Part shown: piece after piece, positions 261 to 2,388 of the stretch | Position numbering within the stretch: position 1 is the stretch's first letter | Layout of the letters: every line of letters starts with the position of its first letter | IMG/VR virus record: IMGVR_UViG_2706794664_000007 | DNA length: 4,637 nt | Strand: one strand, 5' to 3' | From: a virus | Taxonomy: Duplodnaviria; Heunggongvirae; Uroviricota; Caudoviricetes | Notes under the pieces: generated by a model | Seen by the model: only the letters and a program-made list of their open reading frames with translations | Told to the model about the DNA's origin: nothing | Databases searched by the model: none | Made by a program: the position numbers and the translations under genes

Positions 261-2210
261 TCACCTTTTAAATGGAGAATACCCAACATCATGGGTGATT
301 TTCATAAAGGGATCGCCTGTTTTCGGCAAATCGATAACGCGCATTCCAGGCGGCGCGTTGTCAAACGTCACCTTAAGTTCGCTGCGGGTTGCCGGTGAAG
401 ATGCAAGGCTTAACAGCTGATTCCTTTCCAGTGATACATTCGGGGTGTAGCGTTTATCGGGAGATAAATACCCATCACCACGTGGCATCTGCCATCCGGT
501 CATGTCATAGACAAAATCATGGAACTGTTTGCCCCACTCGTCGAACTTATCATTCAGACCAAATCCACTGTTCAGTGCATCAGCCACAAAATTTTTAACA
601 AGCCAGGGATGTGCTTTTTCAAACTCCTGCGCCATCATGCCCAGTTCAAGCAATCCACCAATCAGACTGATCTTTCCGAGGCCCTTTAATTTCAGCCCTG
701 TTTTTCCTGCCGCCGTTGTCCATTGATTCTGGGCGACTGTTGCCGCACGAATACTTGCCACCGCCTTCACACCAATATACAGGGCAGAAACCGTTGCTAT
801 TGTTTTTACTGCCTGTTCCCATCCCCCCATTGCTCTGACAACCTGATCAACCTCCTGCCAGACTTTTTTCACAACCGGACCGACCGTTTCCCAGTTATCA
901 ATTATGAGATATGCACCACCGACGAGAAGCGCAATTAATCCCTTTGCCGGCGTCATATTCATCACGCTACCCATGATTTTTGTTATGCGTGTCAATGTGC
1001 CAATCGCCACGCCCATCGTCAGTAATGCCGCACCAGTTTTCGCGATGGTTTTTACGACCTCAGGATTTTCTCTGACAAACGTGCGCACTTCTTCCAGAAA
1101 AGGCTTCATCTCTTTTATGCCTTCATTGAGTGAAGGCAGGAAGGTTTCCCCCAGCGTGGAAGAAATCGCATTGATCTGGTTCTGCAGCAGCAACAACTGA
1201 TTTTCTGTCGTCGCGGCACGGGCGGCATATTCTTTCTGCATTGAGCCGCCATACTGCTGCGCATCCGCCACACGATTAAAGTTGGTTCGCAACAAATCCA
1301 GATTCGTGAGCAGCGGCGCAATGGCCCCCAGGGATTCCTTCCCGAACAGCGCTTTCAGCACAGCAGCCTGTTTTTCTTTCGGCACTTTTGCCAGAGAATC
1401 CAGTACGTGCAGCATGGCCCCGCGGGCGTCTTTCTGCATATCCGCCGCCAGTTTTTTCGGGCTAATGCGCAACGAGCGGAGCACTTTTTTCTGCGATTTG
1501 GTGGCAGAATCCCTCGCTGTCAGCGACAACATAAAATTCTTTATCCCCGTCGCAGCAATTTCTGACTCCACCCCCATTCCGGCAATGGTTGCCCCCATTG
1601 CGGCAATCTCTCCGGAGGCCACACCCGCAACACTGCCTAAAGGGCCAATACGGGTCACAACATCAGAAATCTTTTTCGCACTTGCAGGACCGGTATTACC
1701 AAGATAGTTAATCTTATCCGCAAGCCCTGCCACCTCTCCCTGTGTCAGTTTAAAGGCAGTGCGCCACTGCGCCATCATCTGACCGGATTCTTCTGCCGTG
1801 GTGTCAAAGGCCACGCCCATCTTCACGGCATCGTCAGTAAACTGCATCAGCTCGTCACGGGCGATACCAGCCTGACCACCCGCCGCCACAATTTCGGCGA
1901 TACCTTCCGCCGACATGGGCAGTTCTGTTGACAGGTCGCGCACCTGCTCCGTCATTGCCTTAAACGCTTCCGGCGTATCCAGACCATCCACCACTTTCCG
2001 GACATCCGCCATTTTTGATTCAAGGGCAATGGCAGATTTGACCGGGAGCGCCAGCGCCCCCAGTACTGCGGTTCCGGCACCCGCTGCGCCCAGTAACAGG
2101 CTGGCAAACTCCTTTTTAAAACCTTTCAGCTGGCGCTGCATTCCCTTCAGCGGTGCCGATACCTTATCCACGGCAGTGATGATCGCCTTCAGCTGAAAAC
2201 TGTCAGCCAT
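261..2210 (-). CDS. Phage tail tape measure protein (TMP), 649 aa, complete
   Basis: Long uninterrupted minus-strand ORF with ATG at 2210..2208 and TGA at 263..261. GAGGAG lies 7 nt upstream of the ATG, and an in-frame stop sits immediately upstream, so this is the first possible start. The protein is Ala/Gly-rich with an N-terminal region (approx aa 95-300, e.g. MSAEGIAEIVAAGGQAGIARDELMQFTDDAVKMGVAFD) that I recall as resembling the conserved core of TP901-family tape measure proteins, plus several hydrophobic helical segments (approx aa 385-526). It is the largest gene, directly downstream of sheath, tube and chaperone, the canonical TMP position. Confidence 0.9.
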   Translation of the reverse strand: MADSFQLKAIITAVDKVSAPLKGMQRQLKGFKKEFASLLLGAAGAGTAVLGALALPVKSAIALESKMADVRKVVDGLDTPEAFKAMTEQVRDLSTELPMSAEGIAEIVAAGGQAGIARDELMQFTDDAVKMGVAFDTTAEESGQMMAQWRTAFKLTQGEVAGLADKINYLGNTGPASAKKISDVVTRIGPLGSVAGVASGEIAAMGATIAGMGVESEIAATGIKNFMLSLTARDSATKSQKKVLRSLRISPKKLAADMQKDARGAMLHVLDSLAKVPKEKQAAVLKALFGKESLGAIAPLLTNLDLLRTNFNRVADAQQYGGSMQKEYAARAATTENQLLLLQNQINAISSTLGETFLPSLNEGIKEMKPFLEEVRTFVRENPEVVKTIAKTGAALLTMGVAIGTLTRITKIMGSVMNMTPAKGLIALLVGGAYLIIDNWETVGPVVKKVWQEVDQVVRAMGGWEQAVKTIATVSALYIGVKAVASIRAATVAQNQWTTAAGKTGLKLKGLGKISLIGGLLELGMMAQEFEKAHPWLVKNFVADALNSGFGLNDKFDEWGKQFHDFVYDMTGWQMPRGDGYLSPDKRYTPNVSLERNQLLSLASSPATRSELKVTFDNAPPGMRVIDLPKTGDPFMKITHDVGYSPFKR

Positions 2211-2388
2211 GCTTCATCTCCTCGTTAATGCGGACGGCCTCGGCTTCCAGTTCTGTAAACTGCGAAACAGCCCCCCGTCGCAGCTCCAGTGGATTCAGTT
2301 TCCAGAACCAGGCAACATTGTAGAGTCGTTTCCGGAGGTGCTTCCCGTCTCCGACTGGGTAAAAAAACGCAGGATCTGCATGCTGGTC
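2203..2388 (-). CDS. Tail assembly chaperone, 3' portion only (5' end lost in N-run); frame that reads through to overlap the TMP start
   Basis: From the N-run edge one minus-strand frame is open for 61 codons (DQHADPAFFYPVGDGKHLRKRLYNVAWFWKLNPLELRRGAVSQFTELEAEAVRINEEMKHG) and ends at TGA 2205..2203, overlapping the TMP start (ATGGCTGA). It has protein-like composition. Its position between tube and TMP is where tail assembly chaperones (lambda G/GT, P2 E/E+E' equivalents) are encoded. The start and true length are unknown because of the N-run. Confidence 0.5.
   Translation of the reverse strand, partial: DQHADPAFFYPVGDGKHLRKRLYNVAWFWKLNPLELRRGAVSQFTELEAEAVRINEEMKHG
2218..2223 (-). promoter_or_regulatory. 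Shine-Dalgarno (GAGGAG) for the tape measure gene
   Basis: GAGGAG on the minus strand, 7 nt upstream of the TMP ATG at 2210. Confidence 0.6.
2295..2388 (-). CDS. Possible zero-frame (short form) of the tail assembly chaperone, 3' end; hypothetical
   Basis: A second minus-strand frame (TSMQILRFFTQSETGSTSGNDSTMLPGSGN) is open from the N-run edge through the T7 run and terminates at TGA 2297..2295, 21 codons after the T-run. Relative to this frame, the long frame that reaches the TMP start is the -1 frame. Which frame is continuous with the true start cannot be decided because the 5' part lies in the N-run. Confidence 0.3.
2361..2367 (-). promoter_or_regulatory. Candidate -1 programmed ribosomal frameshift slippery heptamer (T TTT TTT on minus strand)
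   Basis: Seven consecutive A on the plus strand, so TTTTTTT on the coding strand. In the frame ending at 2295 it is arranged X XXY YYZ (T TTT TTT). A possible 5-6 bp GC-rich stem (CGGAG/CTCCG, plus 2332..2354) begins about 7 nt downstream. Other A7/T7 runs occur in the window by chance (250..256, 2985..2991), so this is suggestive only. Confidence 0.3.

Follow-up and report, generated by a model that had tools for sequence, protein, structure and literature searches.

The window analyzed here is a stretch of 4,637 nucleotides (nt) from the virus record IMGVR_UViG_2706794664_000007 (IMG/VR; Caudoviricetes), and the element under study is a candidate programmed -1 ribosomal frameshift in its putative tail assembly chaperone gene. 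Every long open reading frame (ORF) of the window is located on the minus strand, which according to the ORF list and the annotation of relatives carries the genes for the tail sheath, the tail tube, the chaperone and the tape measure protein, in that order. The chaperone gene is thus found between the tube and tape measure genes, as a chaperone pair of the G/GT type requires. Judged by sequence identity, the window derives from a phiP27-like Escherichia coli prophage. Positions 2000..3100 share 97% identity with phage phiP27 and 99.8% with a prophage of E. coli FDAARGOS_944 (NZ_CP065613), and the identity of the tail-gene context to E. coli prophages is 99.8-100%. The original prediction, made from the letters of the window, proposed a -1 frameshift in the chaperone gene like those of phages lambda (G/GT) and P2 (E/E+E'). 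The coordinates of all features are shown in Table 1.

Two runs of N, at 2389..2656 and 3772..4039, cover 268 nt each. The true length under 2389..2656 is 240 nt in sequences with identical flanks and 234 nt in phiP27; the masks are therefore not length-preserving, and a frame cannot be transferred across a mask by counting. The mask was filled from relatives identical to the visible flanks, namely L010, L002 (the FDAARGOS_944 prophage) and L006, all of which have the same 240 nt. The IMG/VR locus L010 has 0 mismatches to the window flanks in 2604 compared bases. With the mask filled, the 0 frame is uninterrupted from an ATG that overlaps the tube stop codon to its TGA. The A and T of this ATG are visible at 2658 and 2657, while its G and the next 239 nt are masked. 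The true length of the 0-frame ORF, including the stop, is 336 nt, the coordinates in the window being inflated by the 268-nt mask.

The filled -1 frame contains five stops inside the chaperone gene, the last of which is a TAA abutting the mask edge, and it opens only 9 codons before the slip point. The position of this TAA explains why the long frame had been described as open from the edge of the N-run. Two frames had been reported as open from there; both are, but so is the third minus-strand frame (+1), which is stop-free for 53 codons from the mask edge at 2388 to a TAA at 2227..2225. The start codon and ribosome-binding site sought under the N-run belong, in the relatives, to the frame ending at 2295, with the ATG in the overlap TAATG and GGAGGG 8 nt upstream. 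In the sequence type of the window, ATG, GTG and TTG are all missing from the -1 frame before codon +48; in most relatives no start codon was found in this frame near the heptamer, and in several lineages there is none at all. In the absence of a nearby start codon the conserved -1 ORF can be reached by recoding only. A single unshifted long ORF, which the original prediction had left as an equal possibility, is contradicted by the five upstream stops together with the missing start codons. A continuous long frame combined with a short frame stopped under the mask had been named as the outcome that speaks against a frameshift; the mask-filling relatives have the reverse.

The slippery heptamer appears as an A7 run on the plus strand and as T7 on the minus strand, where the 0-frame codons are CG[T TTT TTT] ACC. 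Its X XXY YYZ phase and the 0-frame stop 21 codons further on agree with the original prediction, as does the end of the -1 frame in a stop that overlaps the tape measure start; the length of the -1 frame was put at 50 codons further, and is in fact 52 codons from the heptamer, or about 31 beyond the 0-frame stop. The predicted translation after the slip is YPVGDGKHL...EEMKHG. The predicted fusion product consists of residues 1-90 followed by the 52 residues of the -1 frame, 142 amino acids (aa) in total, and its reading frame overlaps the start of the tape measure gene by 8 nt (ATGGCTGA). At the fusion junction the sequence is expected to be ...ILRFF/YPVGDGK, corresponding to the peptide FFYPVGDGK or, with another protease, ...ILRFFYPVGDGK.

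The comparison set comprised 80 viral loci encoding relatives together with phiP27, SfV, SKA5, ST64B, YeP1 and vB_EcoM-689R6, which were reduced to 42 distinct sequences. The heptamer is present in the same phase and position in all of the 42 but one (L031). Its usual form is T TTT TTT; the SfV group has T TTT TTC instead. The codon preceding it varies (CGT for Arg, AAT for Asn, GGT for Gly), with a third base that is always T. The protein identity of the -1 tail is 75-77% for ST64B and SfIV, 43% for YeP1 and 34% for SfV, and in most lineages its stop overlaps the tape measure start. The 0-frame tail after the heptamer comprises 21 codons in the window, 8 in YeP1 and 3 in SfV. In the phiP27 group a stop closes the -1 frame 9 codons before the slip, and the 0 frame of SfV ends 3 codons after it; a shift site shared by both groups must therefore be located within a 12-codon interval, and this interval contains the heptamer.

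Selection was followed in sliding windows of the ratio of nonsynonymous to synonymous polymorphism (pN/pS) across 37 distinct sequences. For the 0 frame the ratio rises from 0.11-0.26 upstream of the heptamer to about 1 downstream of it, whereas for the -1 frame it falls from above 1.8 to 0.06-0.25; over the overlap of the two frames (2298..2360) the values are 0.98 (0 frame) and 0.22 (-1 frame). Purifying selection thus leaves the 0 frame at the heptamer and acts on the -1 frame from there on. In the non-overlapped part of the extension, the 84-nt gap between the chaperone and tape measure genes, variable sites are distributed over the three -1-frame codon positions as 9/29, 4/30 and 24/30 (chi-square p = 4e-7). 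Strong purifying selection and the excess of third-position changes indicate that the -1 frame is coding. The +1 (or -2) frame, considered as a Mu-like extension, is open to 2225 but has a pN/pS above 1, so that its openness is a by-product and the frame is non-coding. As a control, the tube gene has a second in-phase T TTT TTT (2991..2985, minus strand, codons 8-10), which is not kept in the SfV group (TAT TTC).

Table 1. Features of the tail gene region in the window
Feature	Position	Strand	Basis or remark
Slippery heptamer T TTT TTT, in the X XXY YYZ phase of the 0 frame	2361..2367	-	Codons CGT TTT TTT = R F F
0-frame tail of the short product, 21 codons (TQSETGSTSGNDSTMLPGSGN)	2298..2360	-	Without protein-level constraint
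-1 extension (T/E'-like), 52 codons (2361..2206), then TGA (2205..2203)	2203..2361	-	Sequence and selection
Putative chaperone 0-frame ORF (G/E-like), 111 aa	2295..2658	-	Rebuilt from L002, L006 and L010; stop TGA 2297..2295
TAA closing the -1 frame, last three masked bases next to 2388	2389..2391 (approximate)	-	-1 frame of L002 opens at 3185, equivalent to window 2388
Candidate stem-loop of the original prediction: CGGAG, 11-nt loop, CUCCG	2333..2353	-	Unsupported as stimulator
Shine-Dalgarno-like GGAGGG, 8 nt 5' of the chaperone ATG	2667..2672	-	Read from sequence
Tail tube gene, 118 aa	3014..2658	-	ORF list; phage tail tube protein in phiP27 and NZ_CP065613
Tube stop TAA	2660..2658	-	Overlaps the chaperone ATG (TAATG)
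Tail sheath gene	4530..3014	-	ORF list; partly masked
Shine-Dalgarno-like GAGGAG of the tape measure gene, within the -1 extension	2218..2223	-	Read from sequence
Tape measure protein gene, 649 aa	261..2210	-	ORF list and annotation; ATG 2210..2208

The 111-aa product of the 0 frame matches the Pfam family PF10109 (Phage_TAC_7) over residues 8-77 with 29.8 bits, the cut-off being 25. This family is described as 'Phage tail assembly chaperone proteins E, or 41 or 14' (P2 gpE, Mu gp41, gp14); the SfV homologue scores 56.7 bits against it and P2 gpE 47.8 bits. The protein also matches phrog_166 (tail protein) with an E-value of 5e-28, and is named 'phage tail assembly protein' (WP_001251341) by the Prokaryotic Genome Annotation Pipeline (PGAP). 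It had no match to PF23746 (Gp41_Mu), the Mu-type chaperone family, and no relative was found by sequence among solved structures. The -1 extension has no match in Pfam or NCBIfam and matches only two small PHROGs of unknown function, phrog_32181 and phrog_11318. The profile comparison with chaperone families that had been suggested thus places the short product in PF10109, but leaves the extension outside PF06528 (Phage_P2_GpE), the family which P2 E+E' itself matches with 76.3 bits.

A stimulatory element was searched for by folding, by conservation and in Rfam. The GC stem that had been noted about 7 nt after the heptamer exists, as a 5-bp stem (2353..2349 with 2337..2333) following a 7-nt spacer. 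Its proposed role as a stimulator found no support. Folded in a 36-nt segment, the stem has -8.6 kcal/mol (z = -0.06), no better than shuffled sequence, and the 86-nt context has z = +0.56. Among 14 distinct relatives the pairing is broken on one side in most, uncompensated, and is absent from SfV and YeP1. The consensus fold of 12 sequences has -4.45 kcal/mol. A scan of 2150..2388 against Rfam returned no match at E <= 1, and the 24 nt upstream of the heptamer contain no Shine-Dalgarno-like element. Neither a conserved stem-loop or pseudoknot nor an upstream Shine-Dalgarno-like element, by which dnaX-type and IS3-type sites are recognized, is therefore seen here, and since no conserved stimulatory RNA was found, the slip seems to need the heptamer alone. 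Sharma et al. (PMC4066793) rank the class H_HH.U_UU.Y with the best-shifting -1 motifs of E. coli and note that genes of this species avoid UUUUUUU.

On this evidence two tail assembly chaperones are very probably made from one start codon by a programmed -1 ribosomal frameshift at the heptamer. The filled mask, the conservation and the switch of selection at the heptamer all support the mechanism that had been proposed by analogy to lambda and P2. The locus combines the gene position, the two overlapping ORFs, the in-phase slippery heptamer and the conservation with both frames coding that characterize G/GT-type pairs. Most ribosomes would stay in the 0 frame and produce the 111-aa protein, equivalent to P2 gpE and lambda gpG. 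A minority would step back one base at T TTT TTT (2367..2361), where the two tRNA-Phe would re-pair from UUU UUU to UUU UUU, and reading would resume with TAC CCA GTC... The slipped reading would give the 142-aa fusion, equivalent to P2 gpE+E' and lambda gpGT, which terminates 8 nt inside the tape measure gene. The gene order, the frames, the phase and conservation of the heptamer and the switch of constraint come from the analysis itself; that the slip would be ribosomal and occur at a few percent is taken from lambda and P2. By the same analogy, the shared N-terminal part may bind the tape measure protein and the -1 extension may recruit the tube protein, and neither product is expected in the final virion.

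Several observations weigh against this interpretation. The window contains four T7 runs on both strands together, versus 1.45 +/- 1.61 expected, and 25 of 200 shuffles reach four. As the original prediction had cautioned, the T7 run by itself is within chance for the window, and its significance therefore rests on position, phase, conservation and the selection signature. Folding, conservation and Rfam revealed no stimulatory element, and for U_UU.U_UU.U without stimulators shifting has been reported only as >0.1% (PMC4066793), so that the shift efficiency at T TTT TTT may be low here. The extension and the fusion gave no match to PF06528 at E <= 1, and BLASTP against P2 E+E' found no similarity (E = 18). 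The profile alignment to P2 E+E' with hhalign is collinear (8-134 versus 7-135) and places the slip sites in one column, but is weak, with an E-value of 0.006 and a probability of only 6%. The 240 masked nt are supplied by relatives, although L010 matches the window over the 2604 flanking bases compared, and the evidence for two products is comparative throughout.

The same 142-aa fusion (...RFFYPVG...) would also result from transcriptional slippage, if RNA polymerase added a U at the T7 run and the U8 mRNA were then read normally. The site is a homopolymer, the fusion protein is identical by either route, and the under-representation of UUUUUUU and AAAAAAA in all three frames of E. coli genes has been partly blamed on such slippage (PMC4066793). 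This route is nevertheless quite unlikely, because the SfV group and P2 have six T's only, followed by C or G, with the architecture unchanged, and because conservation follows the X XXY YYZ phase, down to the third base of the variable preceding codon, and not the length of the run. The well-documented bacterial cases cited are moreover runs of 9 A or T (PMC5009743). There is a small chance that RNA polymerase stuttering on the T7 run accounts for all or part of the shift, or else that the shift needs some hidden stimulator, for instance the nascent ...MQILRFF peptide, as no RNA stimulator was found and the bare heptamer may be weak. If true, either would make the clade a tractable E. coli model for the short-to-long chaperone ratio in contractile-tailed phages.

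That no recoding takes place, the -1 ORF being a separate small gene or the 84-nt stretch a non-coding one with an incidental open frame, is extremely unlikely. The short chaperone is, to be sure, the only product annotated by PGAP and by the 24 phage records; in that of vB_EcoM-689R6 the -1 ORF is treated as a hypothetical gene of its own with a GTG start, and in the SfV group a GTG precedes the slip point by 7 codons. Independent initiation is, on the other hand, ruled out by the missing start codons described above, the -1 frame has the low pN/pS and third-position excess of a coding sequence from the heptamer on, and constraint begins at the heptamer, upstream of any possible start codon. 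The prophage may also be defective and the frameshift layout an inherited relic without use in this genome, in keeping with the insertion sequences (IS) found in the lineage, of which the window has an IS1 end (1-83) and the sheath gene of the FDAARGOS_944 prophage an ISEc60. Such decay is very improbable, since the window shows no damage to the heptamer, the two frames, their stops or the Shine-Dalgarno sequences, all of which differ little or not at all from their counterparts in the sequenced phage phiP27, and it bears on present-day use and not on the identity of the element. A programmed -1 ribosomal frameshift at the heptamer remains the preferred explanation.

A few variants were observed in the comparison set and at the tube-gene T7. 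L031 (at about 1790) and the protein P0003 (Shigella flexneri K-1770) have an extra G (CCGGG versus CCGG) 30 nt past the heptamer, with the result that the 0 and -1 frames are read as one ORF of 142 aa. The extra G is either a genuine mutation that leaves the fusion product alone ('fusion-only') or an error in sequencing a homopolymer. In L034 (1900..1910) an extra A before the tape measure ATG (A7 versus A6) shifts the fusion stop and results in a 57-codon tail. A -1 slip at the T7 of the tube gene (2991..2985) would meet a TAA immediately; L015 has T6 at this position, and its tube ORF is broken.

The annotations of phiP27 and NZ_CP065613 list sheath, tube, 'tail protein' or 'phage tail assembly protein', and tape measure. 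In the records of SfV, SKA5 and ST64B the sheath and tube genes are described as similar to Mu L and M. Positions 1..83 of the window are the terminal 83 nt of IS1, 100% identical to IS1A/IS1B copies on thousands of plasmids. Homology to the prophages starts at 84; the IS1 therefore lies about 177 nt past the stop of the tape measure gene, within a small hypothetical gene that is the next one in relatives. In the 99.8% identical prophage of E. coli FDAARGOS_944 (L002, 261..1451; NZ_CP065613), ISEc60 (IS4-like) splits the sheath gene, and that copy is therefore defective.

This kind of frameshift is textbook knowledge, but the case of this clade is unannotated in the records checked. Ribosomal slippage is marked in none of the 24 phage records that hold the extension (0/24, including phiP27, ST64B and SfI/II/IV/V), and it is not marked in the PGAP record NZ_CP065613. 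Among the matches listed, 25 E. coli records have the short chaperone alone under the match. In vB_EcoM-689R6 (L087, 1186..1368; ON470584) the -1 ORF is annotated as a separate 60-aa hypothetical protein, with a GTG 7 codons upstream of the slip; it is likely a mis-annotated frameshift extension. Only four proteins matching the extension were found among 5.8 billion protein clusters, all of them contig-end fragments or indel products. In the open full-text literature searched, to which Xu et al. (2004) did not belong, no paper describing this frameshift in the phiP27/SfV/ST64B group was found. The prophage family is present in about a fifth of complete E. coli genomes. Because the slippage is unannotated, an essential tail assembly product would be missing from the proteomes of this family. 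The value of the result is mainly for annotation, and the understanding of phage tail assembly is unchanged by it. The switch of purifying selection from one frame to the other at a conserved heptamer is a clean signature, which could be used for the automatic annotation of such sites.

Phage Mu has the same kind of tail module in the same order (sheath, tube, chaperone, tape measure). Its gp41 scores 24.7 bits against PF10109, just below the cut-off of 25, and belongs to PF23746, in contrast to the chaperone described here. As far as Xu et al. (2004) is cited in PMC2628397, Mu was reported to use a -2 rather than a -1 shift. The slippery sequence of lambda is G GGA AAG. Lambda is a siphovirus and has no sequence family in common with the chaperone described here, but the mechanism and the genomic position, just upstream of the tape measure gene, match. 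Lambda gpG and gpGT share one start codon; a -1 slip of low frequency toward the 3' end of the gene yields the short and the long product at a fixed ratio, and neither is found in the virion (PMC5009743). The roles of the two domains have been shown for lambda (PMC5009743) and would be the same here only by analogy.

The closest known system is E/E+E' of P2 (NC_001895, -1 shift annotated; FETUD tail operon), which has the same layout and whose slip site shares a column with that of the window in the weak profile alignment. It differs in the length of the short product (91 aa for E versus 111 aa here) and of its tail after the heptamer (6 codons versus 21 unconstrained codons here), in the family of the extension, which here lies outside PF06528, and in the remaining tail module, which here is Mu-like and not P2-like. 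As in the window, the P2 gene is flanked by those for the tube (FII) and the tape measure protein (T), and in both systems the N-terminal domain belongs to PF10109. Both have an in-phase T-rich heptamer, T TTT TTG in P2 and T TTT TTT here, and in both the fusion comprises 142 aa and its stop overlaps the tape measure gene by 8 nt.

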